This document shows, piece by piece, positions 705 to 54,979 of a DNA stretch of 64,000 bases. The number at the start of each line of letters is the position of its first letter. The first letter of the stretch is position 1. The DNA comes from Nitrososphaerales archaeon (lineage in GTDB: Archaea > Thermoproteota > Nitrososphaeria > Nitrososphaerales > JACAEJ01), in NCBI GenBank assembly GCA_038883135.1, contig JAVZMU010000001.1, positions 2,988 through 66,987 on the forward strand, given 5' to 3'. A model generated the notes under the pieces. That model was given only the letters and a program-made list of their open reading frames with translations, was not told where the DNA came from and did not search any database. Both the position numbers and the translations under genes were made by a program.

Positions 705-706
705 GA

Positions 707-1675
707 ATGTATCCTCTTCTAGAACTGCTTCAAATTCTTATCTTTCCTGGTATACTCTTTGCTATATTTCTTGCCTTTATATACGAGTGGTTAGATAGAA
801 AAATCTACGCTAAATTGCAAAATAGAGTTGGACCTCTTTACACAGGTCCGATGGGAATTCTACAACCTTTCGCAGACTTCATAAAACTTCTTGCAAAGGA
901 AGACATAGTCCCAAATGAAGTAGATAAACCTCTCTTTAATGCTTTACCTATAGTTGCATTAACCCTATCTTTAATGGGCTTCTTAGCTCTACCAATAATT
1001 GGTTTAAGAGGCATAATCTCTTTTAATGGAGATTTGATTTTTCTGATAGTTTTAATGACTTTGATTTGTATAGTAGTAATATATGCAGGTGTATCATCTT
1101 CGAATAGATTTTCTATAGTAGGTGCTGAAAGAGCTGCCCTTCAACTTTTAGGTTACGAAATACCCATGATGCTATCTGCAGTAAGCGTTGGAATACTAGC
1201 TAATTCTATGTGGGTTTATGATATAGTTAGCATTCAATCAAATAACGTTTGGTTTTTAATAGGTCCAGGTATTCTAGGTTTTGCTATTTTCATTATTTGT
1301 GGTCAGGCAGAATTGGAGAGGATACCTTTCGATATACCAGAAGCAGAAACTGAAATTGTTGCAGGCTGGTTAACAGAGTTTTCTGGTAGAAAGCTTGCTT
1401 TGTTCAGACTCACTAGGAATGTTGAACTCTTGTATCTATCAGGGTTAGCTGTAACTTTATTTTTAGGTGGACCTTCTGGACCAATCATCTCGGGTCTAGA
1501 ACCAATTTTATATCCTATCTATTTCTTGCTAAAAACCTTATTCGTACTTTTCTTATTAACAACTCTTCGTGCCCTTTTCGCAAGGCTTAGAATAGATCAA
1601 ATGGTTAACTTCTCTTGGAAGTATTTAATACCTATCTCAATATTACATATTTTATTTGTTAGGGTGATCGTTTAA
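707..1675 (+). CDS. Membrane subunit of the NuoH/MbhM/HycD/EchB family
   Basis: 322-aa polytopic protein with ND1/NuoH-type motifs (KLQNRVGP near the N-terminus; GQAELERIPFDIPEAETEIVAGW). It starts 2 nt after the large-subunit stop. Confidence 0.85.
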   Translation: MYPLLELLQILIFPGILFAIFLAFIYEWLDRKIYAKLQNRVGPLYTGPMGILQPFADFIKLLAKEDIVPNEVDKPLFNALPIVALTLSLMGFLALPIIGLRGIISFNGDLIFLIVLMTLICIVVIYAGVSSSNRFSIVGAERAALQLLGYEIPMMLSAVSVGILANSMWVYDIVSIQSNNVWFLIGPGILGFAIFIICGQAELERIPFDIPEAETEIVAGWLTEFSGRKLALFRLTRNVELLYLSGLAVTLFLGGPSGPIISGLEPILYPIYFLLKTLFVLFLLTTLRALFARLRIDQMVNFSWKYLIPISILHILFVRVIV

Positions 1676-2014
1676 ATGTCTATGCTGAAAGAAATTCAAA
1701 AAAGTCTTTTTAAGAAGAAGGCTACAGTACTTTATCCCTTTAAAGAAAGGGAAAAGGTTCACATACCTAAAGGATTAAGAGGTAAGATAGTTTTTGATAG
1801 AGAAAAGTGTACTGGTTGCCTTTTATGTTCAAGGTTTTGTCCAAGCGGAGCTTGTGAGATTGTTACGGATGAGAAAGGTAAAAGACCTATATTTCACTTA
1901 GAACTTTGCTTATTTTGTGCTCAATGTCAAGAAGTCTGCCCTAAAGGTGCGATTAAGTTGACTGAAGAGTTTGAGCTAGCAGCCTTTGATAGAAAGGCTT
2001 TCACTATTAGGTGA
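1676..2014 (+). CDS. 2x[4Fe-4S] ferredoxin subunit, NuoI/MbhN family
   Basis: 112 aa with two CxxCxxCxxxCP motifs (CTGCLLCSRFCP, CLFCAQCQEVCP). It abuts the NuoH-like gene. Confidence 0.85.
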   Translation: MSMLKEIQKSLFKKKATVLYPFKEREKVHIPKGLRGKIVFDREKCTGCLLCSRFCPSGACEIVTDEKGKRPIFHLELCLFCAQCQEVCPKGAIKLTEEFELAAFDRKAFTIR

Positions 2015-2547
2015 TGTTAATGGTTGATTATTTGATACATATAGGCTTTTTAATCTCTCTAATATTTCTAGCTTTTCTAGTTGTAGAAGTCAAAGATTTG
2101 CTTAGAGCTTTAGCATTATTCATAATGATGAGTTCAGTCCTTAGTGTTATCTTCTACATTTTGGGTGCACCCTATATAGCAGTATTTCAACTAGCTATAT
2201 ATGCAGGGGCAATAGCAGTTCTCTTCCTTGCTACTCTTCACACTACAAAAGGGAGAGTTATAGGCAAAAATTTAAGTTCAATCCTAAACCTTATTCTGGC
2301 AATTTTACTCCCTTTTATAATATTGACTTTCTCTATAAACATTATAGATGCTCTTAACATGGTCAATCCACCACAAAGTTATCCACTTGAAAAATCTCCC
2401 TTCTTTTTATGGACCTATAGGAGTTTTGATATTATCATACAAGGACTTCTTTTGTTAGCTACAGTTACAGCTGTGATTGCAATTCTTAGGAAGAAAGAAG
2501 GAGTTAAAATTACTGAAGAAGCTGTGGAGGAGAGTAAAAATGAATGA
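2011..2547 (+). CDS. Small membrane subunit, NuoJ-like (MbhD/E-like)
   Basis: 178 aa with about 5 TM segments. FQLAIYAGAIAVLFLATL resembles the NuoJ/ND6 core (VYxGAIxVLFLF). A 4-nt overlap with the upstream gene suggests translational coupling. Confidence 0.55.
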   Translation: MMLMVDYLIHIGFLISLIFLAFLVVEVKDLLRALALFIMMSSVLSVIFYILGAPYIAVFQLAIYAGAIAVLFLATLHTTKGRVIGKNLSSILNLILAILLPFIILTFSINIIDALNMVNPPQSYPLEKSPFFLWTYRSFDIIIQGLLLLATVTAVIAILRKKEGVKITEEAVEESKNE

Positions 2548-2851
2548 ATTGCTTCAACTTTATATACCTGCATCCCTTATCTTGATAGCTTTGGGACTTT
2601 ACTGTATAGCCACTAAGAGAGATCTGATAAAGATCGTATTAGGTATAGAAATAATTACTTCCGGTGTTAATCTTAACATAATAGTCATGGGCTTGAGAAG
2701 TAATGGTGTTGAAGCTCTTGCTCAATCCATCGCTTTAATTTCTATGACCATAGGAGCTTGTATTGCAGCCGTTGCTTTATCTATAATCATCAACGTCTTT
2801 AGGCATTATGGAACTACGGATACAAAAGAACTCAAAAGGTTAAAATGGTAA
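2540..2851 (+). CDS. NuoK/MbhG/MrpC-like small membrane subunit
   Basis: 103 aa with 3 TM segments. KRDLIKIVLGIEIITSGVNLNII matches the NuoK/MrpC pattern. I prefer the in-frame ATG at 2540, which overlaps the upstream stop by 8 nt, over the track start at 2477. Confidence 0.65.
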   Translation: MNELLQLYIPASLILIALGLYCIATKRDLIKIVLGIEIITSGVNLNIIVMGLRSNGVEALAQSIALISMTIGACIAAVALSIIINVFRHYGTTDTKELKRLKW

Positions 2852-2881: not shown

Positions 2882-4054
2882 TTACTCTTCACGTTCTTTT
2901 TTACTATCAGAAAGCTTAATAACGGACTTTAAACCTGGTTTAACCTCTTCTATTGGCTTAAACTCTATGTAATTAGCTTCACAAGCACCCTTAAAGAGCT
3001 CCTCACCGATCTTTGTTCTGACTATTACTGTAGACCAACCATCAGGAGAACCTACTGATCCTATAGATATGTCAGCGTATTCTGCTGTAAAATCTCTACA
3101 TATGTGGCAAGCCTTTCTAACACAAGCCTTAACTTCATCTAATGGTACGCTAAATAGCTCCTTACCTTCTGCATACGCTATAAACTTGCCCTTTTTTATA
3201 GCAAACTTTTTAACAGTATTTATATCTATACCTTTCCACTCTATAAATTTTACAAGCTCTCTATACCAGAAGCTTTCCATACAAAATAGCCCAATAATAA
3301 ATTTTACATGACTGCCTAGTTTTGAGCAAGCTTTTTGTGAATACTGCATCTTTCTAAGTGTCTGAACTTCACAAGGTACCCCAACAATCCCTACGCTATT
3401 GCTAGCATAATCTTCAACAGCGTATCTAAGCCCTATGGTTACAGGGCTTGTTGAATACTTTGTACCAGATGCTCTTATTAGTTCTTTAGAATCAAATACT
3501 ACATCTGGCCAAGGTCTCCATAAATCTCCTTTCGTTTCATAATCCCTTTGCCAAGGTCTAAACACATCTACATTTCTTTTAGATGCTACTGCACTATTGA
3601 CAATCCCTTTATCCAAAGAATATGCTAAAAGTGTCGTAGCTATTCCACCATCTTGAGCAACATCCAAAATTTCTTTAATCTTTGATCTCGCAGCGTATGC
3701 TGCTATATATATTCCTAAACGCTCTTCCTTATTCCGATTTCTACCGAAAATGACCTTATCCATCTCATCAAAATCAAAAATCGTTCTAGGACATGTATAC
3801 CAACAGAGCTCACATTGATAGCAAACACCAACGAGTTTTGGAAGTTCATTCTCAAATCCTATAACAGAGAAGGGGCATGCTGCAAAACAACCGCCACAAA
3901 AAGTACATTTGCCTGCATCTATAACATCATTAAAAAGGTCCTCAAAGGTTTTCGGTTTGATTCCAAATACAGATTTATACTGTTCTGCCTCTTTTTTACC
4001 ATAAAATATAAAGCTACGAATGGTCTTAAGTTCTGTAGACATTTTTAACTTCAT
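2882..4054 (-). CDS. FrhB-family protein (coenzyme F420 hydrogenase/dehydrogenase beta-subunit-like) with N-terminal 2x[4Fe-4S] domain
   Basis: N-terminal Cys clusters CTFCGGCFAACP and CYQCELCWYTCP. FrhB-type motifs AQDGGIATTLLAYSLDKG and GVPCEVQTLRKM are also present. Confidence 0.7.
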   Translation of the reverse strand: MKLKMSTELKTIRSFIFYGKKEAEQYKSVFGIKPKTFEDLFNDVIDAGKCTFCGGCFAACPFSVIGFENELPKLVGVCYQCELCWYTCPRTIFDFDEMDKVIFGRNRNKEERLGIYIAAYAARSKIKEILDVAQDGGIATTLLAYSLDKGIVNSAVASKRNVDVFRPWQRDYETKGDLWRPWPDVVFDSKELIRASGTKYSTSPVTIGLRYAVEDYASNSVGIVGVPCEVQTLRKMQYSQKACSKLGSHVKFIIGLFCMESFWYRELVKFIEWKGIDINTVKKFAIKKGKFIAYAEGKELFSVPLDEVKACVRKACHICRDFTAEYADISIGSVGSPDGWSTVIVRTKIGEELFKGACEANYIEFKPIEEVKPGLKSVIKLSDSKKEREE

Positions 4055-4268: not shown

Positions 4269-5426
4269 TTGAAGATGGAAGATAAGAGAGAAGGTTTTTT
4301 ATCGTTTAAAATTGAAGAAAGATACGATCTTGGCAATTTAGTAACCTTCATACCAAATAAAACCGTCCCAATACATAACTGGTTTTATTTTAAAGAAGGT
4401 TTTTCAAGAGATTTTGTTTTACTAATGTTGGATTGGCTAAAAATTAAGAGGGGCAATTGGATACTTGATCCTTTTTGTGGCTCAGGAACAACACTACTAA
4501 CATCAAAAGAATTTGGAATAAATGCTATTGGAGTTGATGCATCTCCTCTTGCAGTCTTTGTCACGCAAGTAAAGATAGAAGATTACGATTTAGAGAAGAT
4601 TAGAGATTATGCTAAAGAACTTTTTTCAAAAAAATTTGAAAGGTATGAAATCAAAGGATTAAGCTCTCTAACTAAAAGAGCCTTCTCAAAATATTCTCTT
4701 GAAGATATTTTATTCTTTAAAGAAGAAATTAAGAAGATTAATGATCTAAAAATAAGAAATTTCTTTACTTTGGCTTTAATAAATGCATCAAATAAGGTTA
4801 GTTATGCATACAAGGATGGAAGCGTAATAAAGATACGTGAGAAGCCAAATATTCCATTAAAGAAGGTATTTAAAAGAATTGTTAAGAAAATGTTACATGA
4901 TTTAAAGAGAGTGAATTATAAAGGTTCTGATATAAAAGTCTACATTGGAGATGCTAGAAAGATGGATTTTCTCCAAAACGATTTCTTTGATGCTGTTATA
5001 ACATCACCTCCATACTTGAACAAGATCGAGTATACAAAAGTTTACTCAATAGAGTATGAATTATTTTTTAAAGAATTTGAAATCGATAGTTTAAGATCTT
5101 ATATTGGATTAAACCCTAAGCACATTAAAGACATATTCCCTGAGTTAAATTTACCAGATGTAGCAAAAGCATACTTACAAGATATGAACGATGCTTTAAA
5201 AGAAATTTATAGAGTTCTGAAAGATGATGCTAAATGCTCGATGGTAGTTGCTGAAGGGACCTTTCCTGATAGAATAGTCCCTGTAGATTTATTGATAGCG
5301 AATTTAGCTGAGAAAATAGGCTTTAAAGTTGAGAGAATAATTATCGCTAATGAGAGAGTTGTGACTAGGGAGAGGACTTTTAAAATAGGAAAAGCTAGAG
5401 AGAGCATAATTATAATGAAAAAGTGA
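4269..5426 (+). CDS. SAM-dependent N-methyltransferase of the DNA-MTase type (N4-C/N6-A class)
   Basis: Motif I LDPFCGSGTTLL lies about 175 aa upstream of motif IV VITSPPY, which is an alpha-like order. No nuclease gene sits next to it. The TTG at 4269 or the ATG at 4275 could be the start. Confidence 0.55.
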   Translation: MKMEDKREGFLSFKIEERYDLGNLVTFIPNKTVPIHNWFYFKEGFSRDFVLLMLDWLKIKRGNWILDPFCGSGTTLLTSKEFGINAIGVDASPLAVFVTQVKIEDYDLEKIRDYAKELFSKKFERYEIKGLSSLTKRAFSKYSLEDILFFKEEIKKINDLKIRNFFTLALINASNKVSYAYKDGSVIKIREKPNIPLKKVFKRIVKKMLHDLKRVNYKGSDIKVYIGDARKMDFLQNDFFDAVITSPPYLNKIEYTKVYSIEYELFFKEFEIDSLRSYIGLNPKHIKDIFPELNLPDVAKAYLQDMNDALKEIYRVLKDDAKCSMVVAEGTFPDRIVPVDLLIANLAEKIGFKVERIIIANERVVTRERTFKIGKARESIIIMKK

Positions 5427-5511
5427 TATAGCTTATACAAAAATTAACAGAGATCACATCTACTTTATTACCTAAAAGTTTATGATAGGGATCATTTAAT
5501 CTTCATTATCA

Positions 5512-6735
5512 ATGAAATACATATTGATAATTGGAGACGGGATGGCAGACCTTCCATTGAAAGAGCTAGGTAGCAAAACACCCTTGCAAGTAGCTGACCA
5601 TCCTAATATGGACTTCATAGCCTCTCATGGATCATGTGGTAGATTAATCACCCTTCCTCAAGAATTAGATAGTGGTACAGATGTTGCTATTATGAGTATC
5701 TTAGGTTACAATCCTAAAGAATTTCATACAGGAAGGGGACCGTTAGAAGCAGCCGGTATTGGCGTTAAACTTAATGAGCACGATATAGCATTTAGATGTA
5801 ATTTAATAACTGAGAGAAATGGTATTTTAGTAGACTATTCTGCAGGACACATTAGTACAGAGGAAGCTAGAGAGCTTTTAAAATCAATAAAAGATGCTTT
5901 TGAAGAACCTAGAAGGATAGAGTTTTTTCCTGGTGTAAGCTTTAGACATTTGCTAGTTCTAAAGGGGAATAAATACTCTAATAAAATAATATGCACTCCT
6001 CCTCACGATGCTTTGAATAAACCAATCTCTAAGATTCTTCCTAAGGAAAAGGATGAGGATGGTGTTAAAACAGCTAGAATTCTAAGGAAGATAATAGTAG
6101 AATCTAAAGATATATTATCAGATCATCCCATTAATAAAATGAGAATTAAGAGAGGAAACAATCCTGCCAATATGATATGGCCATGGGGTCATGGAATAAA
6201 ACCAAATTTTCAACCATTTTATAATTTATATGGTATTAAAGGTGCGGTAATATCTGCAGTAGACATAGTGAATGGGATAGGAGTCTTTGCAGGCTTTGAT
6301 GTGATAAGAGTCCCAGGTGCTACAGGCTATTACGATACAAATTACGAAGGTAAGGCAGATTATGCTTTAAAGAGCTTAAAGGATCATGATTTCGTTTTGA
6401 TTCATGTTGAAGCTCCTGATGAAGCAGGACATTTAGGAGATTACGAACTTAAGATAAAGACAATAGAAGATTTAGATAAAAGGTTGATTGGTAGAATATT
6501 AAAAGATCTTAAAGGAGATTATACTATTGCAATTTTATCAGATCATATTACCTCAACAGAATTAAGAGTTCACTCAAGAGAACCTGTTCCCTTTGCTATA
6601 TTCTCAACTTCTCAAACTAAAGCGAGTAAAGTCAGTCGTTTTGATGAATTTTCAGTAGAGAAAGGGTCTTTAGGACTTGTTGAAGGAATCAAATTTATGT
6701 CTCTTTTTCTTAAACATGATGAGCTTACCAAGTGA
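5512..6735 (+). CDS. apgM: Cofactor-independent phosphoglycerate mutase, archaeal type
   Basis: 407 aa. The N-terminus MKYILIIGDGMAD and the HVEAPDEAGH metal-site motif are typical of ApgM. Confidence 0.85.
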   Translation: MKYILIIGDGMADLPLKELGSKTPLQVADHPNMDFIASHGSCGRLITLPQELDSGTDVAIMSILGYNPKEFHTGRGPLEAAGIGVKLNEHDIAFRCNLITERNGILVDYSAGHISTEEARELLKSIKDAFEEPRRIEFFPGVSFRHLLVLKGNKYSNKIICTPPHDALNKPISKILPKEKDEDGVKTARILRKIIVESKDILSDHPINKMRIKRGNNPANMIWPWGHGIKPNFQPFYNLYGIKGAVISAVDIVNGIGVFAGFDVIRVPGATGYYDTNYEGKADYALKSLKDHDFVLIHVEAPDEAGHLGDYELKIKTIEDLDKRLIGRILKDLKGDYTIAILSDHITSTELRVHSREPVPFAIFSTSQTKASKVSRFDEFSVEKGSLGLVEGIKFMSLFLKHDELTK

Positions 6736-6807
6736 ATAGTATCGGAGATTTTTGCTAACTAAGTTTCTTTCCCTATAAAGATGTAAAAATATAGAAATCA
6801 TTATCGA

Positions 6808-6922
6808 TGCGGGGGGTGGGATTTGAACCCACGAACCCTTCCGATACTCATCTTCGGGACAGGCGCCTATAGCCAAATTAAATTTCAGGCCTGCGCCTTT
6901 GACCTGACTTGGCAACCCCCGC
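6808..6922 (-). tRNA. tRNA-Leu gene (class II) interrupted by two short introns; predicted anticodon GAG
   Basis: The reverse complement reads GCGGGGGTTGCCAAGTCAGGTCAAAGGCGCAGGCCTG[AAATTTAATTTGGCTAT]AGGCGCCTGTCCCGAAG[ATGAGTATCGGAA]GGGTTCGTGGGTTCAAATCCCACCCCCCGCA. The acceptor stem GCGGGGG/CCCCCGC, discriminator A73, T arm GTGGG-TTCAAAT-CCCAC and Leu-type D loop are all present. The anticodon stem is CAGGC/GCCTG. The gene is 115 nt against about 85 nt expected. CCA is not encoded. Confidence 0.8.
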
Positions 6923-6964
6923 CTATCCTTAATAAAACTCATCTATTTTTTAAGTTTAATAAAA

Positions 6965-7339
6965 TTAGCTTCTAGGAATTCTCCAACCCATCTTTTTGAA
7001 CATTTCTATAACTTGAGGATTTTCAGCAACAAACTTCACATGGATACAATCTTCAGACCTATCTAATTCACATATTAGCTTACCTCCTTCAATAAGAATG
7101 TTTAACCATCTACTTAAAGCTTCATCGTATATAGTTACACGATCCATAGCTATATTCCAAATTCTAAATGGATGAGTTACTTGAACAGCCTCATACCCTA
7201 GTTCTGATAATCTTTTCCTTATAGCCTCTTTTATGAATTCTGGACGGCTATCATAGCCTAGCGTGCCAGCTTTAATAATCATGTCTATTTTATCTACAAG
7301 ATCTTTTGGTAGGCTTATAGATACAAATTTCTTAGCCAT
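6965..7339 (-). CDS. Ribbon-helix-helix (CopG/NikR-like) transcriptional regulator with a C-terminal domain
   Basis: The N-terminus KKFVSISLPKDLVDKIDMIIKAG..SRPEFIKEAIRKRL fits the RHH pattern of a beta strand followed by two helices. Confidence 0.6.
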   Translation of the reverse strand: MAKKFVSISLPKDLVDKIDMIIKAGTLGYDSRPEFIKEAIRKRLSELGYEAVQVTHPFRIWNIAMDRVTIYDEALSRWLNILIEGGKLICELDRSEDCIHVKFVAENPQVIEMFKKMGWRIPRS

Positions 7340-9835: not shown

Positions 9836-10722
9836 AAAATCAAATCACCTAAGGTTAAAATAAACATAGATCGATTTTAACATTAATAACATCACCTTCT
9901 CATTATGAATAAAGAATTATTTTATCTTCTACTCGACTTTGAATGCTATTAATATTATACAAACCAATTTCCTCCTCCATCCTTCTATAATTAAGCTTTT
10001 TTTCAACTCATCCCTCCTTCTTTCTCTTTCATACATCTTAGCATAAAAAGGTAAGGAATATAAATCCTGAGTTTTTGCTCAATTTCCTATTTCTCTTTTG
10101 AAGTTCATGCAATCTTTTTATAGAAGCTTATCTTGAGATATAAGACTTTAAATGATGTGACAAACTATTAAAATAAAACAATAAAGTTTAACTCTCGATT
10201 CTTACTTTTTCATAAGAAAATTTTTCTACGAAGTTTCTAAATCTGACGAAGTCTAAAGGATAATTAAATAACGATTCTACTACAATATAAATATCGTCTT
10301 TGGTTGATACTACTTTTTATGAAAGCAGGATTTAACAGTCCTATTCTAATTGTTCAAATATTCCTAACTTTTATTTTACCCACTCTTTTTTTCTAGAAAG
10401 CATGTAAAATTCAACTCTTTACTATCTTTCTAACTTTGTCACCATTAAGACTTAACCCTTTCATGGTATTAAAAGAACAAATACGTCTTTGTTGACTATC
10501 TCTTCATATGTAGCTTTTCATACGAAAAATTATGTTTGAATCCCTCTTTAGGAATTATAGTATTTTTCTCAGTAATAAAATATGTGATTTTAGAAAAGAA
10601 TTATGATTATTGCTTAATAAGATACTTATAAAATGTTTCAAGCTACTTTAATAGATTTTACATTCTTGTCTATAACTAATTAATCTCATATGTGTTAAAG
10701 ATTTAATGCTTATCTAAAAGAT

Positions 10723-18987: not shown

Positions 18988-19461
18988 TTGAAAGTAAAAG
19001 ATAAAGGGGTTTACACTCTCATCATAAACTTAGCTAAAAGAATTAATTTAAGAGTAGGATGCTTAGGTCCATTAGAATTTAAGAAAGGATTTTATGTGTA
19101 TACTGGTTCAGCTTTAGGTTCAGGAGGATTGATGAGAAGAATTCAAAGACATTTAAAGAAAGATAAGAGATGCTTTTGGCATATAGATTATTTTTTAAAG
19201 AGTAAATATTCATCTATCAAAGTAGTAATTTATGCGAAAAGTAATAAGAAATATGAATGTGAGATTGTAAGAGAAATAATCGATGCAAATATGAAGCCCG
19301 TAAAAGGATTTGGAGCTAGCGATTGCAAAGAAAGGTGTAAAAGTCATCTGCACTACATGATGGGTGATTTAAACGGGATAGTTAAGAAAATTCTTGATGC
19401 TTATAATAGTTTAAGACTTAATGCTAATTTCTACTTTTTGAATGATAAAGAACTAAAATAA
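18988..19461 (+). CDS. GIY-YIG-superfamily protein (DUF123-like)
   Basis: KGVYTLII..., GFYVYTGSALG, RIQRHL and WHIDYF follow the DUF123/Uri-endonuclease pattern. Confidence 0.6.
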   Translation: MKVKDKGVYTLIINLAKRINLRVGCLGPLEFKKGFYVYTGSALGSGGLMRRIQRHLKKDKRCFWHIDYFLKSKYSSIKVVIYAKSNKKYECEIVREIIDANMKPVKGFGASDCKERCKSHLHYMMGDLNGIVKKILDAYNSLRLNANFYFLNDKELK

Positions 19462-19892
19462 TTTGGGTTATATGAGTTAGAAACAACAAAAGTGATACAT
19501 AAATGCTATAAATTAAAGTCTTGTAATTGCGATAGTTATCTATTCAGCATACTTTTAAGGATAAATATGAAATTGAAGGCTAAATTTAATCTACAAGAAA
19601 GAGCTTATTCTTAAATATTAAAGAATATGCTTAAGGAATAGTTCTGAATCCAATAAGCTTCTTATACAATACTCTTACTTTAAGGACTTCTCTTACATTT
19701 ATAAATATATACTTAATCTTTATTATTCCTTTTAAAGACTCTTGCCTTCTTCATTATTCTCATAAGGGTAATTAATCCACTTATAAACTAAAAAGAGAGT
19801 AAACAGAATAAACAAGATGAGGAATATCATCTTGATAATCCTCAAAATTGTAAGGGGAAAGGTTTATTAGATTTTTTATTTAAAGGAAAAAT

Positions 19893-20208
19893 ATGTGCAT
19901 ATGTTAGACAATTCTACCCTGGAGTGACTCAACCTTCTATCAACAGAAGAAAGTACATAGACCCAAAAACGGAATATGAGAAGCTAAGAAGCTTAAGTGA
20001 TGAAGATCCCATCAGAATTTTAGGGCATAGTTGCAGCTGCACATGCAGCTAGAGGTGATGTTTGGTGTGTTAATCCACTAATCAAAGTCGCATTGCAGAT
20101 CCTAGCCTCAAATTCGATCGGGTATATCCAAGAGAGTGCTTTGCTAAAGGAGTATTAAGGGAGTATATGCCAGCTGGTAGAAGAGATACAATAGTACCTC
20201 CTCGTTAG
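19893..20208 (+). pseudogene. mcrG/mcrA: Relic of a methyl/alkyl-coenzyme M reductase operon: first ~45 codons of mcrG fused to last ~60 codons of mcrA
   Basis: An ATG at 19893 is followed by one extra T. The next frame gives AYVRQFYPGVTQPSINRRKYIDPKTEYEKLRSLSDEDPIRILGH, an McrG N-terminus. From 20024 a second frame gives [23 protein letters not shown]. After a 1-nt frameshift near 20093-20095 it continues [37 protein letters not shown] to a stop at 20206-20208. Together these match the McrA C-terminus. Confidence 0.75.
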
Positions 20209-20695
20209 TAACTCCTATCTTTATATTTCTATGTTCCATTGAGAGTAGATAGACCGCTATTCTTCCGTCTTCGTTGGTAATAGGGGAATAGATTTTGCGC
20301 AAGTACTAGATGTTAAGATAATTCATTTATGAGTACTCATTCATATATTGCTATAAAAATCTAGCAATTGACGATAAGGTTGTATTTTTAATTAAGCTTT
20401 AAGTATTCTAAACCATTTCTTAATTACTCATAATAAATGTTTATGTTCATACCTCAAATACACTCTTTAAGATACTTTATCCATTAGTTTTTATCCCATA
20501 ATGAAGAAATCCTCCTATACGATAGACTAGAAAAGTAGATTAAGCCTTCAAACTTATTCCTCTTAAAGACATTAGATTCTTTAACTCTATTTAATTATTA
20601 AGAGCAACATTCTTAATCAAAATAAATTTTATCTTGATATTATCCGTTTTTGATATAGTAAAGTACATTTACCTGATTTTATAATTTAATTTAAA

Positions 20696-26400: not shown

Positions 26401-26712
26401 TTATTTAATTAAAGGAGAAAGATCAGCTTCTCCAGGGGACTTTATTGCTATTGCAGATATAGGGAAAGGCTTACCACAAACTCTACCAAGCTCTACAGAA
26501 GTTCCTTTAAATTCCATAAATGGTATCGATAGAGATTTACATGTATTCACAATTTCTGAAACCTTATCTTTTGATAAGAATGATGAATAAATGACTATCT
26601 TTGATCCTTTTATGGATTTTAATACTTCCTTTGTGCCTAAAATGTATTTTCCTGTTTTTATAACTGTTCTTAAAATTTTCTCAAGATCTTTTTCAATAAT
26701 CACTTTTCTCAC
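26401..26712 (-). CDS. rpl30e: Ribosomal protein L30e
   Basis: 103 aa. The GTKEVLKSIKGSKIVIYSS pattern is typical of the family. It overlaps the rpoA stop by 20 nt. Confidence 0.85.
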   Translation of the reverse strand: MRKVIIEKDLEKILRTVIKTGKYILGTKEVLKSIKGSKIVIYSSFLSKDKVSEIVNTCKSLSIPFMEFKGTSVELGRVCGKPFPISAIAIKSPGEADLSPLIK

Positions 26713-29700
26713 TTCTCATAAAAAGATCAACCATACCTGTACCTACAGGTATAGGCAAGCCGACAATTACATTTTCTGTTACTCCTTTTAGCTCCTCAAC
26801 CTCTCCTTTTACAGATGCCTCAACTAAAGTAGGAACCGTTATCTCAAAAGCAGCTCTAGCTAGTATGCTAGGTTTCTTTCCAGCTATTCCATGCCTTCCT
26901 ATCTGTTGGAAGAATCCTTTAGAAGTCATAAGGTCAGCTACGAGTAGTATATGTCTTATATCTACCTCAAGACCTTGCTCCTCTAATGTGCTCATTATCT
27001 CTTTCACAAGGGCTGTCCTTGCTGCTTCTATTCCTAAAGTTGTTTCAATTTCATAAATGGAATTAGTAGTTGTACGTGTAGGGTCTACTCCTTTTATCCT
27101 TAAGACTTTTGCTAAATTAGATCCCGCAGTTTGTATCATCCACTCGTCGCCTTTCTTAATTAATGCAATACGCTCTATTCCTGGGACTCCTTTTACACGC
27201 ATACTCATTATCTTGTTTCTTAAAGCAGATAAAGCTGAAAAATCAGCTCCTTCTAATGTAATATATATAATTCCACGTTCTTCATCCACTTCTACCTTAC
27301 GCTTTCCTGCTTGAACTACTTTCCTTATAAGTTCAGGGCTACAATCCCTCTCTTGAAGTGCATCTTTATTCAAGAATAGCTTTATGGTATTATATTCTAT
27401 TTCCCAAGGTTGGTTAGGATCTAATAGATCTGCAACCTTAGTGAATAAAATTTCTTTTGCCACTTTAAGAGCGCTCTCTTTGTTGTACTTATGCTCCTCA
27501 TCAAGATAAATATCCATGGATGGTGTTGAGGGTTGCTTTCTTGCATCTATAAGTTCTATAAGCCTTGGTAAGCCTAAAGTTACATCCCTTTCTCTTACAC
27601 CTGCAAAGTGAAATGTCCTTAAAGTCATCTGCGTACCTGGTTCGCCTAAAGATTGAGCGGCAACTACACCACAAGCTTCTCCAGGTTCAATTGTAGCTTT
27701 TTCTAATAGTTCTACAACCTTTTTACAAACATTTTTAATGCCTGAAATATTTAAAGGAAATTTAAGTAAAGAATTCTTTAGTTCTTGAATCAATTTAGGA
27801 TTAAGCTCCTTTGCGTATTGATCTAATATATTATTTATCTGCTCTTCTTCTATTGGTTCTTTACTTCTATTAATTAATGATTCAATCTCGACTAAGTGCT
27901 CTACATTTACAGCTTTCCCATGATCGCTTTTTGCTGGATCGACTCCGTCCTCACCGTATAAGAACTGTATTATATTACCATAGGAATCTCTTACGGTTAA
28001 ATCATATTCTACCTTTAAATTCTCAAGAGCATTTATGAGACGTCTTTGCATATAACCACTTTGTTGAGTTCTTACCGCTGTGTCCACTAAGCCTTCACGT
28101 CCTCCCATAGCATGAAAGAAGAACTCTGCTGGATTCAAACCGTCTCTATAATTGGATTTAATAAAACCTTTTGCATCTGGCGTAATATCCCAAGGTAAAA
28201 AGTGAGAAAGAGCACGACCTCTATAACCTTTTTCGATTCTTTTTCCTCTTACAGATTGTTGCCCTAAAGCGGCTGTCATCTGACCTATGTTCAGGCTTGA
28301 ACCTCTTGCTCCGATTCTCGCCATGATTACACCGCTATTATCTAAAGGAAAGGCTTTATCTGCAATTCTTCCAGCACGATCTCTCGCTCTTGATAATTCA
28401 TTTACAATATGGTATTCAAGATTTTCTTCTGGCGAAAGCCCACGAACTATTGGAAGAGTTCCTTGTTTATACTGATTGATAAGTTCTTTAATTTTTTCAT
28501 ATGATTTCTCTATCTCATCACTTATAGTCTTTTTGGCTTCCTCACTTAGTATGAGCTCATCATAACTATAAGAGAAACCATGTCTTGCAATGAAAGACTT
28601 GAGGACAGAAAGGATTGAATTTAGAAAATTACGAGCTACTTCAACACCATAATCCTTTGCTATTCTATGAAGAACACTATCTGATTCCTCAGCTCCAATA
28701 GCAGCTCTATCTATTACTCCATTAATCAAAACACCATTCTTAATAACAATATCCTTAATATCTTCACCCTTTTTGAGACTTTTAGCCCATTTTGAACTCA
28801 TAATATAGTTAAAATCTTTTGGCAAAAACAAGGAGAATAATTGTCTTCCTGTGTAAAGCTCAACTGGTTTCTTTATTTCAGGTTCAGGTAAAGGACCATC
28901 ATATCCACCTGAAAATGCTAGATTAGAAAACTCTTCTTTTGTCAAAAGGGTCTCTGGTTTTGTCAGTAAATAAGCTGCAGTAATGAAATCTCTTATAGCA
29001 CCTATAATAGGTCCACCATACCTTGGAGATAATATTTGTTGCTGAACTCTCATTAAGGTTAGGGCTTCTGATCTTGCCTCTTCACTTTGAGGTACATGAA
29101 GATTCATCTCATCGCCATCAAAATCAGCATTATAAGGTGGACATACTGCTGGATGCAACCTAAAAGTCTTGTATGGTAAAACTTTTACATAATGAGCCAT
29201 TATGGACATTCTATGTAATGATGGCTGTCTATTGAATATCACTATATCTCCATCTATTAGATGCCTCTCAACAATAAAGCCTTGAGTTAGAGTATTTGCT
29301 AAAGCTACTCTATCGCTAACGTAATCAAGCCTTATCTTCACACCATCAGGTCTGATGATATAATTTGCTCCTGGATGCTGAAAAGGACCGTTTATGACAA
29401 GCTTCTTTAAGAATTCAACATTCCAAGGAGAGACTTTTTCTGCTATTGTCAATTTCTTTGCTACTTCTAATGGTACACCAACCTCAGAAATATCTAGGCT
29501 TGGATCTGGTGATATGACAGTTCTACTGGAGAAGTCTACACGTTTGCCCGATAAGCTTCCTCTAAAGCGTCCTTCTTTTCCCTTAAGGCGTTGGCTTATG
29601 GTCTTCAAAGGGCGTCCTGATCTATGATGAGCCTGAGGAATTCCAGAGACTTCGTTATCAAAATAAGTAGTCACGTGATATTGTAACAAGTCCACCAAAT

Positions 29701-30505
29701 CTTGGACGATTAAAGGAGGGGTACCTGCTTCTTTACTCTCTCTAACCCTTTGATTCACTCTTAGTATATCTACTAGTTTATGAGTTAGATCGTCTTCAGA
29801 TCTTATACCTGACTCAAGTGTGATTGAAGGTCGAACACTAAGTGGAGGGACTGGCAAAACTTGTAAGACTAACCACTCAGGTCTTGAGCTTTTAGGATCA
29901 TAGCCTAAAAGCTCAAGATCATCATTAGGAATTCTTTCAAGCCTTTCTCTTATAGCTACTGGTAATAACCTTATGACTCCACCATCTTCTGTAATTTCAT
30001 GGAAAATGCTTGGTTTCGTTAATTCTATTTCATATTGTTGCTTCCCACAGTGAGGACAGATCTTAATCTTTTTGGCCTTAGCTATTATTTCTTTTATACT
30101 CTCTTCTTCAAATCTTTGAGTAAGGATACTTTTCTCAGCAAGTTTTTTTCTATAATTTTCAATTTCAACTTGTGGAATTAAAAGTCTTCCACAAGTTCTG
30201 CAAGTCGAGAGAAGAAGTTTATGAATAATATCAATAAAAGCTATATGTAACACAGGCTCTGCTAACTCTATATGACCAAAATGTCCTGGACACCTTGCAG
30301 TAGTATTTCCACATGTAGCACATTTTTGTCCTGGTTCTAAAGTTCCAAGCCTACTATCCATAAGCCCTCCTTGAACTGGCATTCCATCTTCATCATAAGT
30401 CTCAGGAGCTGTTATCTCAGCAACAGAATATCTTCTAATCTCACTCGGTGGGAAGACTGCAAATTTTATGGAGCCTATAGTCTTAATAGATTCTTCAAGA
30501 GACAA
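26693..30505 (-). CDS. rpoA: DNA-directed RNA polymerase largest subunit, unsplit (A' and A'' fused in one ORF)
   Basis: 1270 aa. The [10 protein letters not shown] active site lies in the first two thirds. The A''-type region ([30 protein letters not shown]) continues in the same frame with no stop or restart around nt 27850. Confidence 0.95.
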   Translation of the reverse strand: [1270 protein letters not shown]

Positions 30506-47991: not shown

Positions 47992-48220
47992 CTCCTAGAA
48001 GGTATTTTATAGTGACTATTGGATGTTTTGCTGCAAACTTAAATTTTGTAAATATACTCATCCCACTAACTCCTAATCTTCTAACCTTAGTAGTTGAATT
48101 AATCCCTTCTCCTCTATCATCTTGGCTCTTAAAATCTTTTCTTTACTCCTTAGCTTCATAAGTGTATGTACTAAGCTCTCATATAAGGCTAATCTAAAGG
48201 TGTAGATTAGTGTTAGGATG

Positions 48221-48922
48221 TTAAAATGGCTTCTTCTTTTTTAGTGAAAGAGCAAGATAATATGTATATATCAACATAGCACTTAAAGGCACTAACCCCC
48301 GAAGACCTCTTCTCAATTTACTTCCTGTTTTGTGCTGATAATATTCCATTGCTTCAAGATAAGCATAATGTATCAGCTTTTTAGGAAAAAATCCCCTAGA
48401 GTATGTAATATGTAATAGTCTTCAGGAAGATGACAAATATTCCCGTAAACCATTGGGAGTTCATGAACAAGCCCTTTAAAGGCTACCTTATCTCTTCTAA
48501 AAATCCTGACTTGTCTGTCAGGATAGAAGGGACCTAAAAGAGGTTTCTTATTATATGAGAGATTGATACGTATTATGCTAAATGCAGAGATGTTTTTCCT
48601 GCAGCTCTAAGAAGAGCCCTCATATTATCTTTAAGCTTTTTGCATAATCTCTCGTTGTCATCAAGATATAATATCCATTCATAAGAGGCTTTTTTAAGGC
48701 GAACATACGGTCTGGATCTGCATAACCCCAAGGGCGTCTTTGGCAAACCCTAGCACCAAAGCGTTTAGCTACTTCTACTATACTATCCATACTGCAGCCA
48801 TCTATTACGATGACTTCATCAACAACGCCCTTAATACGATCCAGTAAACTAGAAATTCTCCCAGCAGAATTTCTAGTAAAGGTAATGAAAGATATTTTCG
48901 TTATGTCTTCTAAGCACCCATC
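48221..48922 (-). pseudogene. Family 2 glycosyltransferase gene with at least three frame disruptions and no start codon
   Basis: Minus-strand pieces are ..ISFITFTRNSAGRISSLLDRIKGVVDEVIVIDGCSMDSIVEVAKRFGARV.. / ASYEWILYLDDNERLCKKLKDNMRALL / ..FYPDRQVRIFRRDKVAFKGLVHELP.. / KKLIHYAYLEAMEYYQHKTG... Together they form a GT2 with the DxD-like LDDNE motif. Confidence 0.6.
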
Positions 48923-49148
48923 TTATAAATAGCTTAACATCGACATAAGGATTCATAAATTATTTCAGCATCATCCATCTTCCTTATACTCTTAACGCAA
49001 TGCCTTTTACGCAAGAATGATGGTAGTCCCCTAATACCATCTAAGAAGCCCTTAATAGCAGATTTAGCGCTTAAGGCGTTTTTTAATAACAAATTATGCT
49101 ATAAGCCACCTACGAGTACTTCACCTACTCTAATAGGAGATGTTTAAA

Positions 49149-49568
49149 TTAGGTTCCGCCAAGAATAATTCTTAGCACACGTCCATAAGTTATTTCTAAT
49201 TCAATAGTAGTATAGCTTAGGATTGCTTTTCCCTTTCTCTCATTCTCTTCAATAATATTTAGCTTGATGTTTTCATGCTTCTCTCTCCATTCTTTTACTT
49301 TAATTATCGTTTCGTCTTTGCTTGCTGAATCTACGATAATAATATTTATCTCATCTTTCGGATAATCCTGTTCATATACGTTATCCAATTTCTTCTCAAT
49401 CAATTTTTCTTCATTGTAAGTTGGAACTATTACTGTAATTGGTAATATGTAATTTCTTTCAATTTTAAATTTCCATGGGTCATTTACGTGTCTCCTGAGG
49501 TAATAGTAGTAGATAAGAGGTATTGAGAAATGAGTAAGCCTAAGTGTGAGTGCTATTATGTCTAACAT
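49149..49568 (-). pseudogene. N-terminal fragment of a membrane-anchored family 2 glycosyltransferase
   Basis: ITVIVPTYNEEKLIEKKLDNVYEQDYPKDEINIIIVDSASKDET...ENERKGKA is a GT2 N-terminus. The ORF ends after 139 aa, before the DxD region, with unrelated tail residues. Confidence 0.55.
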
Positions 49569-49745
49569 GTTGTTTTAATTTAGTTGATAAAGTCTTCGAA
49601 ACACATGTCTTTTCAATAAACTCTCTTTCTCAAATCAACATCATGGAAAACAAATTTTCTCTTTATCGTTAATCTCATAGACAATTCTGTATTTTTCCAA
49701 CCCTTAAGTGGATCGATCAGCAGAACTCCAACATGAGGTTTCATA

Positions 49746-50000
49746 AGTATTTCCCTTTAACACCTTGTCTATAAATTCGATTAAATTCTCAGCGAGTTTA
49801 ACGAGTGTCTTAGCATCCTCACGTGTTTGCACAGAAGGTAGGTATCTAGATGTTATGTAAGCATCATCAATTGCTCTTAGCTTCTCCTCAACTCTTCTAT
49901 TATCCTTTTAGTCTTGCTATATGATGGATCAGAAAGCTCAAGGTATGTTAGCATTCCTATTGCAATAAGGCTTATTGCCAATTGACCTGATAGCAAGGCT
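49746..50000 (-). pseudogene. HEPN-domain gene remnant (frameshifted)
   Basis: Minus-strand pieces are ..GEALLSGQLAISLIAIGMLTYLELSDPSYSKTKRIIEEL.. and DNRRVEEKLRAIDDAYITSRYLPSVQTREDAKTLVKLAENLIEFIDKV. They follow the classical HEPN pattern (RY.....eeA..l..A). Confidence 0.4.
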
Positions 50001-50361
50001 TCACCATACACACTTACTAAAATAGGGTAAAGAACCTTTTACATCTACTTGTACATTAAAAGTTTCATTAGGATATATTAAATTCACTCCAGCCTCTACT
50101 ATGGATTTAACAACATCTTCATATTTTGATGACGTAGTCTCCACTACTGCAGTAAAATCTACTCCTGGTATTTTTGATATGGTTTCAGCCACACTGATAG
50201 GGTCCTTTGAATCTATTAGAATGATATCCTGCCTCATTTCTTTATTGGAGAAATATAATCCTGATAATTTTAATTAATGTAGAAATCTGCTTTGAAAGAA
50301 GTCTTTTAGACTGAATATCAACGCTTTCAGATAATGGAACGAGGACTTTATAACCCTCCAA
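50001..50361 (-). pseudogene. N-terminal fragment of a ThiI/THUMP-type protein (frameshifted and truncated)
   Basis: LEGYKVLVPLSESVDIQSKRLLSKQISTLIK runs to a stop. A second frame then gives MRQDIILIDSKDPISVAETISKIPGVDFTAVVETTSSKYEDVVKSIV....ETFNVQVDVKGSLPYFSK. Both resemble the ThiI N-terminal ferredoxin-like/THUMP region (..RIPGI.....v.....F.V.vkR.G.h.F.S). No PP-loop domain follows. Confidence 0.45.
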
Positions 50362-51897: not shown

Positions 51898-52344
51898 GTG
51901 AGAATATTAGGCCAAGATACGGTAAATATAGAAGAGATTCCTTGGGAAGGGGTTCCAATAAAACATTGCGAATTTATAAGAGCTGAGAGAAGATTTTCAA
52001 AAATGAATCCGTCAGAAGTTTGGGATACAATATACAATGTTACATTAACCAATTTAAGTGAAGAAGATAGGGATTTTATACTCAAAAACATTTCTCCTTC
52101 CTTTGAAGATTGTATTAAAGGATTGAGAGTTACCTACCTTTATAACTTGATGAAACTTATTACATATAGGTACAAACAGTATAAAATTAAGGAAATTAAC
52201 GCAGAAAAGAGCTCTGATTTGCAAAAGCGTGAAGAATATGCGCAAAGAGCTTTTAGTCATTATGAGGCGCTTAGGAGTCTTAAGAGACATTTAATTTACG
52301 GTAGGGATTTAATGCTTAGGGATATGCCAAAAGTTGAGGTATAA
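51898..52344 (+). CDS. Hypothetical protein (GTG start), upstream of the MtaA-like pseudogene
   Basis: 148-aa ORF with no family I recognise. It is preceded by about 740 bp without any ORF. Confidence 0.4.
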   Translation: MRILGQDTVNIEEIPWEGVPIKHCEFIRAERRFSKMNPSEVWDTIYNVTLTNLSEEDRDFILKNISPSFEDCIKGLRVTYLYNLMKLITYRYKQYKIKEINAEKSSDLQKREEYAQRAFSHYEALRSLKRHLIYGRDLMLRDMPKVEV

Positions 52345-52381: not shown

Positions 52382-53405
52382 ATGCGGAAATTCACATCAA
52401 AACGAAGGGTTTTGGCTGCTTTATTGGGTGGAAAGGTAGATAGAGTACCTGTTACCTGTATGGGTGGATGTGGAGGAAGTGTCTCAATAAAGATTCAAGA
52501 AATAACCGGGATACATTGGCCTGAAGCTTTTAAAGACTCTAAGAAAATGAGTAGACTTGCGATTGAAAGTCAGAAGATAACAGGATTAGAATGCGTGAAT
52601 ATTGGTTATGAATTCAGTATATTGCCTGAAGCATTAGGGTGTGAAGTTAAGTATTATGATAATCCTGGACTCAAGCCAGCAATTATTAGCCATCCATTTC
52701 AAAGACCTGAAGATTTAAGGATGCCTGATGATCTTTTGGAAAGAGGTAGAATTCCTGTTATAATGGAAGCAATTCATCTTACAAGGAAAGAAGTTGGGGA
52801 TTTTCTTCCAATATCAAGCTTTATTTTTGGTCCTTATTCACTAGCTGGAGAAATAACTGAGCCTTTAAGATTAATAAAATTATCTCTTAAAGACCCTAAA
52901 ACTGCAAAGAAATTCATTGATTTTACTGCAGAAGTTATAATAGAGTATGGCAAGGCACAATACCGTGCAGGTTCTGATGTATTATCTTTAGGTGAACCTT
53001 TAGGGACGCCTGATAAAGCAGGTCCTGAAACTTTCAGAGAATTAGTTAAACCAGCTTTAATAAAAATAGCTGATAATTTAAAAGGGATAAGAAATCATGC
53101 ATTTATGTGGAGATGTAGAGAAATTCATACCAGAGATAGTCAATATAGGTTTTGATGCTATAAGTGTTAAACAGAGTGTTGATATTACAAAGATTAAACC
53201 AATCGTAGGTGATGTGAGGATTATGGGTAATGTTGAATCAAAAGGCGTATTGACACATGGTACTCCGGAAGAAGTGAGAACTATAGCAAGGAAAGCACTT
53301 GAGGCTGGTGTTAACATACTTGAACCAAGCTGTGGAATTGAGGCTATGATGCCTTTAGAAAACATAAAAGCTCTTGTTGATGAAGCTAAGAGATTTAAAT
53401 CTTAG
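52382..53405 (+). pseudogene. mtaA: MtaA/MtbA-type methylcobamide:CoM methyltransferase (uroporphyrinogen-decarboxylase family) split by a +1 frameshift
   Basis: ORF 52382..53155 (..RRVLAALLGGKVDRVPV.. ..ALIKIADNLKGIRN) continues in frame +1 as ORF 53097..53405 (MHLCGDVEKFIPEIVNIGFDAISV...ILEPSCGIEAMMPLENIKALV). The Zn ligands HxC and C are in the second piece. Removing C at 53096 restores ..GIRNMHLCGD... Confidence 0.7.
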
Positions 53406-53427: not shown

Positions 53428-53739
53428 TTAATCTATAAACAATATTTTAACATCCTTTTTTAATGCTAAACCGAATTCTGCTTCGATTGCTTTAAGTATG
53501 GCTAAAGGAATAGGACATGTTGGATGAAGCTTTACTTCAGAAGCAGCTTTATATATAATATTGTCATCCATTCTTCTTAACATCTCCCTCATGCTTACCT
53601 CGCTTATCCTTTTAGAAAGTTCTATAACGCTTGGGCAATCAGACTCAAGGCTTACAATAACTTTTGAATTTGATTTATTAGCTTGAATGATTACTTTTCT
53701 TTTACATGCACCTGGATTTACACTTACTTTTGTTGTCAA
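53428..53739 (-). CDS. Small Cys-containing protein of unknown function
   Basis: 103 aa with conserved-looking PGACK, SDCPSV and HPTCPIP motifs. It is convergent with the mtaA-like gene. Confidence 0.5.
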   Translation of the reverse strand: MTTKVSVNPGACKRKVIIQANKSNSKVIVSLESDCPSVIELSKRISEVSMREMLRRMDDNIIYKAASEVKLHPTCPIPLAILKAIEAEFGLALKKDVKILFID

Positions 53740-53863: not shown

Positions 53864-54979
53864 ATGTTAAGTAAAAAGATAATAATTGATGAATTGAGAA
53901 AAGTGATAGACCCAGAGATAGGCATAAATATTGTAGACTTAAACATGGTAAAAAGTATAGAAGTAAATGAAAGTAAAGTAAGTGTTACAATTGCGCTTAC
54001 AGTACCTAACTGTCCTCTTGCTAACACTATAAAAGGTGATGTTGAAAAAGTTTTAATGAACATAGAAGGAGTAAAAAATGTTAATGTAGAATTAACTTCT
54101 ATGACAAAAGAAGAACTTAATACTCTTAAAAAGAGTATTCAAGAGAAAGGAGAGGTAAGAAGAAAAACCTCTTTAATAGAGAAGCTTGAGAAAGGGCGTA
54201 TAAGAAATTTAATTGCAATCGTCTCTGGAAAGGGAGGAGTAGGAAAATCTTTTGTGACTGGAATGCTTGCTATAGAATTAAGAAGACAAAGGCATGATGT
54301 TGGCATATTAGATGCTGACATAACTGGCTCAAGTATAGCAAAGATATTCGGTTTAAATAAAAAACCTATAAAAGGAGAGTTTGGAATAAACCCTGTATTA
54401 ACAGGATTAGGAATAAAAGTGATATCTATGAACCTTTTACTTGATGATCCTACTACCCCTATTATTTGGAGAGGTCCTATTATCAACTCTGCTATAAAGC
54501 AACTTTATCAAGATGTTGATTGGGGAGAACTCCACTATTTATTGGTAGATCTTCCTCCTGGTACGAGCGATGTACCTCTAACTGTATTCCAGTCCCTTCC
54601 TCTAGATGGAGTAATAGTTGTATCTTCTCCTCAAGATCTTGCATTAATGGTTGTAAAAAAAGCTATGAATATGGCAAAGCGCATGAATATACCCATCATA
54701 GGTCTTATAGAAAACATGAGTTATTTAGAATGCCCTAATTGTGGGGAGAAGATAGAGCTTTATGGACCTTCTAAGGGGCTTGAAGTTGCAAAAGATTTTG
54801 GGATACAATTCCTTGGTAAAATTCCTTTAGATCCTATAATTTCTAAATTATCCGATCAAGGTAAGCTTGAGGATTACTCTAACCCAGCCTTTACAGAGAT
54901 CACTAGAACCTTAAGACTTAGTTTAGAAGAAGTGGTTAAGAAAACAAGTGTAAGACAACCTATAGCTTGGTCAAGATGA
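53864..54979 (+). CDS. Mrp/NBP35/ApbC-family Fe-S cluster carrier ATPase with N-terminal DUF59 domain
   Basis: Deviant Walker A SGKGGVGKS, CPNCG (CxxC), and an N-terminal VIDPEIGINIVDLNMV (DUF59/MIP18). Confidence 0.85.
   Translation: MLSKKIIIDELRKVIDPEIGINIVDLNMVKSIEVNESKVSVTIALTVPNCPLANTIKGDVEKVLMNIEGVKNVNVELTSMTKEELNTLKKSIQEKGEVRRKTSLIEKLEKGRIRNLIAIVSGKGGVGKSFVTGMLAIELRRQRHDVGILDADITGSSIAKIFGLNKKPIKGEFGINPVLTGLGIKVISMNLLLDDPTTPIIWRGPIINSAIKQLYQDVDWGELHYLLVDLPPGTSDVPLTVFQSLPLDGVIVVSSPQDLALMVVKKAMNMAKRMNIPIIGLIENMSYLECPNCGEKIELYGPSKGLEVAKDFGIQFLGKIPLDPIISKLSDQGKLEDYSNPAFTEITRTLRLSLEEVVKKTSVRQPIAWSR

Follow-up and report, generated by a model that had tools for sequence, protein, structure and literature searches.

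An apparent one-base frameshift in an MtaA-like corrinoid methyltransferase gene from a relative of Ca. Methylarchaeales

Family, orthology and host of the MtaA-like gene

Within the uroporphyrinogen decarboxylase (UroD) superfamily, proteins with a His-Cys-Cys zinc coordination sphere are S-(thiol) methyltransferases, whereas O-demethylases have the cysteines replaced (PMC10418091). In Ca. Methylarchaeales, whose members encode MCR and are predicted to be methyl-reducing methanogens, Supplementary Table 7 of Ou et al. 2022 lists several mtaA and mtbA entries per metagenome-assembled genome (MAG), and k127_1800976_19, located on the HK01M contig (L001), appears there among the mtaA genes (PMC9478090).

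The window, i.e., the whole 64-kb stretch of DNA analysed here, carries an interrupted gene of this superfamily. Its subfamily was assigned with the curated cut-offs of the NCBIfam HMMs, for which the repaired 340-aa protein was used. This protein passed both the methylcobalamin:CoM methyltransferase subfamily model NF004889 (311.8 versus a cut-off of 244) and the MtaA/CmuA family model TIGR01463 (279.1 versus 235.4), in line with the sequence-only reading, which had called the gene MtaA/MtbA-type. That label is nevertheless valid at the family level only, since neither the MtaA equivalog NF040654 (284 bits versus 400), the best match at the equivalog level, nor the MtbA equivalog NF041608 (195.9 bits versus 600) was reached. 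MtbA, although it has superfamily, length and zinc motif in common with the window gene, is clearly further from it than MtaA.

The best match in the PDB was M. mazei MtaA (4AY7; E 1.2e-70, 36% identity over 337 residues), with the H-x-C motif and the third ligand aligned to vlHiCGn and aPgCG of 4AY7, respectively. Thus, the Methanosarcina enzyme (4AY7/4AY8) resembles the window gene in its collinear full-length homology, equal length and identical H-x-C...C ligands. In contrast, the window gene scores below the equivalog cut-off, is interrupted, has no mtaB or mtaC next to it and belongs to a TACK host. HemE, which also belongs to Pfam PF01208, was much more distant (TIGR01464, 66.7 versus 303; PDB HemE matches at E 1e-11 or worse). 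HemE is not known to bind a metal or to carry the zinc triad. An affiliation with HemE or with the O-demethylases, which the sequence-only reading had named as a possible refutation of its assignment, was not found and is ruled out by the NCBIfam scores and the His-Cys-Cys triad. By homology, the window gene is therefore an MtaA/CmuA-family, MtaA-like member of the predicted thiol-methylating corrinoid methyltransferases. A methylcobamide:CoM methyltransferase activity is predicted from this homology together with the MCR-encoding relatives. Coenzyme M is most probably the acceptor of the methyl group; the thiol is not certain, as close homologues are also found in MSBL1, Bathyarchaeota and Asgard MAGs.

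With regard to the host, the Cdv/Vps4 cell-division genes, an RNA polymerase subunit A encoded in one ORF, an intron-containing tRNA, a GC content of about 33% and a partial Fpo/Nuo-like operon point to a TACK archaeon. Among named organisms, Ca. Methylarchaceae HK02M1 (74% identity) and HK02M2 (72%) have the closest homologues of the protein, and a scan of genome contigs located an orthologue in HK01M (L001) and in H03B2 (L002), the relatives being found at 74% identity or less. A DNA-pattern scan of metagenomes across the frameshift site matched only intact relatives (L008 and L009). Furthermore, the order ThiI-like (-), GNAT (-), 148-aa ORF (+), mtaA-like (+), DUF6951 (-), ThyX (+) and aspartase (+) is common to the window, HK01M, H03B2 and L009, with neighbour proteins 53–79% identical. 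Based on this shared gene order and on the listing of k127_1800976 in the mtaA rows, the window gene is the syntenic orthologue of the Ca. Methylarchaeales "mtaA" k127_1800976_19, one of several paralogues. The HK01M gene and its H03B2 counterpart encode proteins of 342 aa with 72–75% identity to the window protein, and they lie between the upstream ThiI-like, GNAT and 148-aa genes and the downstream DUF6951, ThyX and aspartase genes (for H03B2, the downstream set). Both copies are intact, whereas the window locus differs by the extra A, an inserted Mrp/ApbC gene and a degraded ThiI gene.

An Mrp/ApbC-type Fe-S carrier ATPase gene (53864-54979, +) separates DUF6951 from ThyX in the window, while in L002 it is absent at that position and DUF6951 is followed directly by ThyX. 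In L009, the closest intact relative, an insertion of about 2 kb (5264-7278) with a DDE transposase fragment (PF01609) separates the mtaA-like gene from the upstream ORF. The 148-aa upstream ORF, which is conserved, gave no match in Pfam and NCBIfam searches.

Reading frames and position of the extra base

No uninterrupted reading frame encodes the whole protein in a single polypeptide, since the gene is split into two overlapping ORFs of 257 and 102 aa, the second in frame +1 relative to the first, at the coordinates that the sequence-only reading had given (Table 1). The Pfam URO-D profile (PF01208) matched ORF1 over profile positions 1-237 (E 1.6e-45) and ORF2 over positions 243-345 (E 9e-20), and the joined protein over positions 1-345 of 346 (E 2.2e-69; 234.5 bits, with a cut-off of 23.9). 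Because both ORFs cover consecutive parts of one profile, chance is excluded and they are two pieces of one gene, as the sequence-only reading had recognised when it joined them into a complete UroD-family methyltransferase.

Table 1. Coordinates of the interrupted MtaA-like gene, its zinc-ligand codons and its immediate neighbours in the window
Feature	Position	Strand	Basis
Conserved 148-aa upstream ORF	51898..52344	+	37 nt 5' of the gene; homologues in L001, L002 and L009 (57-83% identity)
ORF1 (257 aa)	52382..53155	+	
MtaA-like gene, N-terminal 237 native codons (ORF1 to Arg237)	52382..53092	+	PF01208 positions 1-237; gapless alignment to intact orthologues
AAA run with one-base insertion, frameshift site (AA in orthologues)	53092..53094	+	DNA alignments with L007, L004, L009 and L014
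Out-of-frame tail of ORF1, N-HAFMWRCREIHTRDSQYRF, then TGA (53153-53155)	53093..53155	+	Translation; homology absent in that frame
C-terminal 102 codons (ORF2) with His240, Cys242 and Cys317	53097..53405	+	PF01208 positions 243-345; ligands align with 4AY7
His240 codon	53100-53102	+	
Cys242 codon	53106-53108	+	
Cys317 codon (PSCG)	53331-53333	+	
DUF6951 gene, convergent neighbour	53428..53739	-	PF22263, E 3.6e-27; equal position in L002 and L009

All three zinc-ligand codons lie within ORF2, where His240-x-Cys242 corresponds to residues 2-4 and Cys317 to residue 79, and the three residues were invariant across 13 aligned homologues. In agreement with this, the sequence-only reading had placed the PSCG cysteine in the downstream piece and a single-base frameshift just 5' of the H-x-C site, which the ORF coordinates and the alignments bear out. 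The truncated ORF1 product would end in the aberrant tail HAFMWRCREIHTR.

The position of the lesion could be narrowed down from the window itself and was then placed by DNA alignment with the orthologue contigs L007, L004, L009 and L014, the intact orthologues being 87% and 82% identical at the nucleotide level. The +1 frame is closed by a TAA at 53088-53090 and the homology of ORF1 extends to the AGA of Arg237 (53090-53092), so that the indel must fall within 53091-53096. At this site, the orthologues read GGGATAAG-AATCATGCAT in L007 and L009 and GGGATGAG-AATTATGCAT in L004, compared to GGGATAAGAAATCATGCAT in the window; that is, AGAATC in the orthologues has become AGAAATC by one extra A (AA to AAA, 53092-53094). 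Deletion of one of these three A residues yields GIRIMHLCGD with Ile238, the same as in the two nearest homologues, and intact homologues read GIR[I/V][M/L]HLCGD at the junction. The sequence-only reading had proposed to delete C53096 in order to obtain a continuous protein. Although this also restores the frame, it puts an Asn in a column with Ile, Val or Leu in the aligned homologues, and since the orthologue DNA has AA, the parsimonious lesion is the extra A and not C53096. For annotation, the exact repair is accordingly the deletion of one A of 53092-53094, with the caution that the gene may just be mis-assembled.

Origin of the frameshift and its probable consequences

In comparison with the intact orthologue on L009, the dN/dS ratio of the gene was 0.128 (dS 0.38), and that of the 102 codons 3' of the break was 0.148, with a family background of 0.09–0.10; the coding sequence is thus under strong purifying selection. 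At seven of 100 columns with at least 85% conservation, the repaired protein differed from the conserved residue; the median in 115 homologues was five, and the intact homologue P0002 differed at ten. No second stop or indel was present in the repaired coding sequence. A long-standing pseudogene is ruled out by the dN/dS of 0.13, the lack of further stops or indels and a conservation like that of intact homologues; as the ratio is this low and further damage is missing, the break is either very young or an error of the assembly.

Between these two, we favour, with some reserve, a real mutation that abolished the function very recently, and we infer that the organism itself, and not just its assembly, carries the frameshift. 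This preference is supported by the otherwise clean window, the multi-lesion pseudogenes nearby, a faster protein change and the existence of other broken orthologues. ORFs of 1270, 1118, 625 and 599 aa are intact and about 82% of the window is covered by ORFs of at least 100 aa, which means that the indel error rate of the assembly must be low. Among the examined ORFs of the 64 kb there was no other single clean frameshift, and every further broken gene showed multiple lesions. As for protein change, 20 amino-acid replacements were assigned to the window lineage and eight to the L009 lineage when L004 served as outgroup (binomial p = 0.036), and 19 and eight, respectively, with L002, whereas the three neighbouring genes showed 26 (window) and 24 (L009). 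The contrast between the gene and its neighbours was not significant (Fisher p = 0.15), and the gene-specific excess of replacements is therefore suggestive only.

A less likely but credible alternative is that the 340-aa gene is intact in the organism and that a homopolymer miscall or consensus polishing introduced the extra A. A single lesion in a short homopolymer, low dN/dS and normal conservation are exactly the picture expected if a functional gene had been misassembled. In particular, there is one clean indel, it lies in a homopolymer, all invariant residues are kept, and the 102 downstream codons are free of stops and evolve at nearly the same low ratio as the whole gene. The close relatives on L009 and on L004/5/6, the latter in three independent assemblies, are intact. 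Furthermore, isolated, error-like homopolymer indels do occur in other metagenome contigs with this gene; L007 has further breaks in its DUF6951 gene, and L014 has a change from GGG to GG. However, the A run in the window comprises just 3 nt, the long genes around it are intact and not accompanied by any other lone clean frameshift in the examined ORFs, real pseudogenes lie close by, and the window lineage has the modest replacement excess described above.

Frameshifts were also present in several orthologues. The L007 orthologue has its own single frameshift near codon 18 (L007 ~350-360), the L014 orthologue (P0087) has one at codon ~207, where one G of GGG is lost (L014 ~850), and the MSBL1 orthologues (accessions LHXZ01000001 and LHXX01000018) have one at codon 84 that is common to two single-cell assemblies (L015 5911-5917, L016 328-334). 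L007 is probably a poor contig, given that its DUF6951 gene is broken while the near-identical L009 is intact. L007 and L014 are both short metagenome contigs, and some of their breaks are probably errors, while the MSBL1 break, common to two assemblies, may be real. As a whole, the pattern has two confounders, namely assembly quality and hit ascertainment.

The repaired gene encodes a zinc enzyme of about 340 aa, the orthologue of HK01M mtaA, which by homology would demethylate a methyl-Co(III) corrinoid protein and pass the methyl group to a thiol, most probably coenzyme M, activated at the His-Cys-Cys zinc site. If the mutation is genuine, one A would have been added in the window genome to AGA-ATC (Arg237-Ile238), whereby translation would leave the frame past Arg237, append 20 unrelated residues and stop. 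From the lack of the three zinc ligands and of the final quarter of the barrel, we infer that the 257-aa product should be inactive. The loss would hit one of several redundant paralogues, freshly lost in a Ca. Methylarchaeales relative, and it would be a small data point on the redundancy and turnover of methyl-transfer genes in non-euryarchaeal methanogens that does not imply a loss of methanogenesis. The finding is, in either case, an ordinary one, be it a pseudogene of recent origin or a fault of the assembly.

The sequence-only reading had gone further and taken the frameshift as a second, independent lesion in a methyl-CoM-forming function and hence as a sign of a decaying methylotrophic pathway. 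We regard such a step in the lineage's loss of methylotrophic methanogenesis as unlikely. It would fit the relatives, which are predicted methyl-reducing methanogens (PMC9478090), as well as the faster change of this protein on the window lineage, the further pseudogenes within the window and the broken orthologues in MSBL1, archaea that are not known to possess MCR. A first lesion of that kind was nevertheless not found when the larger ORFs were searched with Pfam and NCBIfam models and the ORF-poor stretches 9845-10698 and 19459-20689 were inspected, and the scanned ORFs of the window held no other methyl-CoM-forming gene, broken or intact. The neighbouring pseudogenes derive from a tRNA-thiolation or thiamine gene and from glycosyltransferases in a variable island, not from methanogenesis genes. 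Moreover, the several mtaA and mtbA entries per relative mean that a single loss says little, and the low dN/dS indicates that the gene was required until very recently, so the claim of a second lesion in a decaying pathway is not supported by the window.

It is highly improbable that the gene is still functional, either by +1 recoding at AGA-AAU-C or because the two pieces are made separately and form an active barrel, even though the ATG of ORF2 lies exactly at the junction (the conserved Met239), the whole zinc site is in ORF2, apparent constraint persists on both sides of the break and single clean frameshifts recur in the orthologues at codons ~18, 84, 207 and 238. The junction lacks a slippery site, a tRNA in the P site could re-pair neither from AGA to GAA nor from AAU to AUC, translation would meet no in-frame stop or rare codon on which to stall (AGA, AAT and CAT are the preferred codons of their families, at 62%, 71% and 85%), three A residues are far too few for transcriptional slippage, and Met239 merely occupies a conserved Met/Leu column. 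The extra base is absent at this position in every orthologue, and as the other frameshifts lie at different sites, there is no conserved recoding signal. A programmed frameshift and transcriptional slippage are thus very unlikely in view of the site anatomy, codon usage and missing conservation. We give hardly any credence to the idea that the fragments (a 238-residue barrel body and a 102-residue zinc piece) reassemble, or that recurrent frameshifts act as a reversible on/off switch of an orphan methyltransferase, as frameshifts at four codons (in the window, L007, L014 and two MSBL1 cells) in an otherwise preserved coding sequence might suggest.

Companion genes and other features of the window

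Pfam scans of the window ORFs, covering most of those of at least 100 aa, revealed no B12-binding, MtaB, MTTB, MtmB or RamA/RACo protein, and the B12-binding signature DxHxxG..SxL..GG was absent from all six frames of the window. This confirms the earlier statement that no corrinoid protein or MtaB/MttB partner is located nearby; hence, the partnership with MtaB and MtaC that defines MtaA sensu stricto was not found within the window, and the partners may be encoded elsewhere in the genome.

The DUF6951 gene downstream encodes a protein of ~103 aa with three Cys and one His. DUF6951 genes are also present inside corrinoid methyltransferase clusters with RACo and URO-D genes (L010 10414-10740, L015 21-281). 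On L010, the P0018 orthologue, which is 69% identical, is located between CobW and a corrinoid protein, and near it are DUF6951, RACo, MtrH, two more URO-D genes, two MttB-family genes and one gene for a pterin-binding methyltransferase. Similarly, the MSBL1 orthologue adjoins a corrinoid protein, another URO-D gene, RACo and DUF6951. Its recurrence beside MtaA-like and corrinoid/RACo genes makes DUF6951 a recurrent companion and suggests a role in corrinoid methyl-transfer systems. Directly 5' of the MtaA-like gene, a CobW/COG0523 GTPase is encoded next to P0002 (L004 3-920) and P0018 (L010 6902-7927), though not in the window. COG0523 proteins are metal-insertion GTPases, and therefore this neighbour may be a helper for zinc insertion. 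The association of DUF6951, and of CobW in other lineages, with this MtaA-like orthologue and with corrinoid/RACo genes is a testable lead to the function of DUF6951, and it is the more useful by-product of the analysis.

At 2-4 kb 5' of the MtaA-like gene, the window contains the remains of other genes. A ThiI/THUMP remnant (49977-50361, -), 2 kb 5' of the MtaA-like gene, retains residues ~12-132 only, in at least two frames, and its PP-loop domain is gone. The orthologue is intact (398-402 aa) in L001, L002 and L009, whereas about 120 residues are left in the window; this remnant is a genuine multi-lesion pseudogene. The adjacent region 47995-49575 (-) has no long ORFs and contains fragments of family-2 glycosyltransferases (GT2): 49149-49568 matches positions 1-70 of the 168 of the GT2 profile only, and 48573-48790 has two overlapping frames that are GT2-like by eye and gave no Pfam match. 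These truncated and frameshifted fragments (48573-49568) border an island that holds polysaccharide genes and toxin-antitoxin pairs. This island appears to be variable, and the upstream pseudogenes look as if they were part of it.

Elsewhere in the window, two AT-rich stretches (9845-10698, 0.85 kb, and 19459-20689, 1.2 kb) lack ORFs longer than about 50 aa, and neither Rfam matches nor repeats were present in them. The RNA polymerase subunit A gene (26693-30505, -) is one 1270-aa ORF with Rpb1 domains 1-5; in most archaea, this subunit is split into A' and A''. A 115-nt tRNA (6808-6922, -; Rfam 45.8 bits) was missed by ARAGORN, presumably because of its intron. The Fpo/Nuo-like genes D, H, I, J and K at 36-2851 (+) are not followed by L, M or N, and next to them 2882-4054 (-) encodes a member of the FrhB/FpoF family that begins with a ferredoxin domain (NF006807, 293.5 versus 269) and that scored 162-168 with the FpoF model, well under its cut-off. 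According to Ou et al., the Fpo-like complex of Methylarchaeales is without FpoF (PMC9478090).
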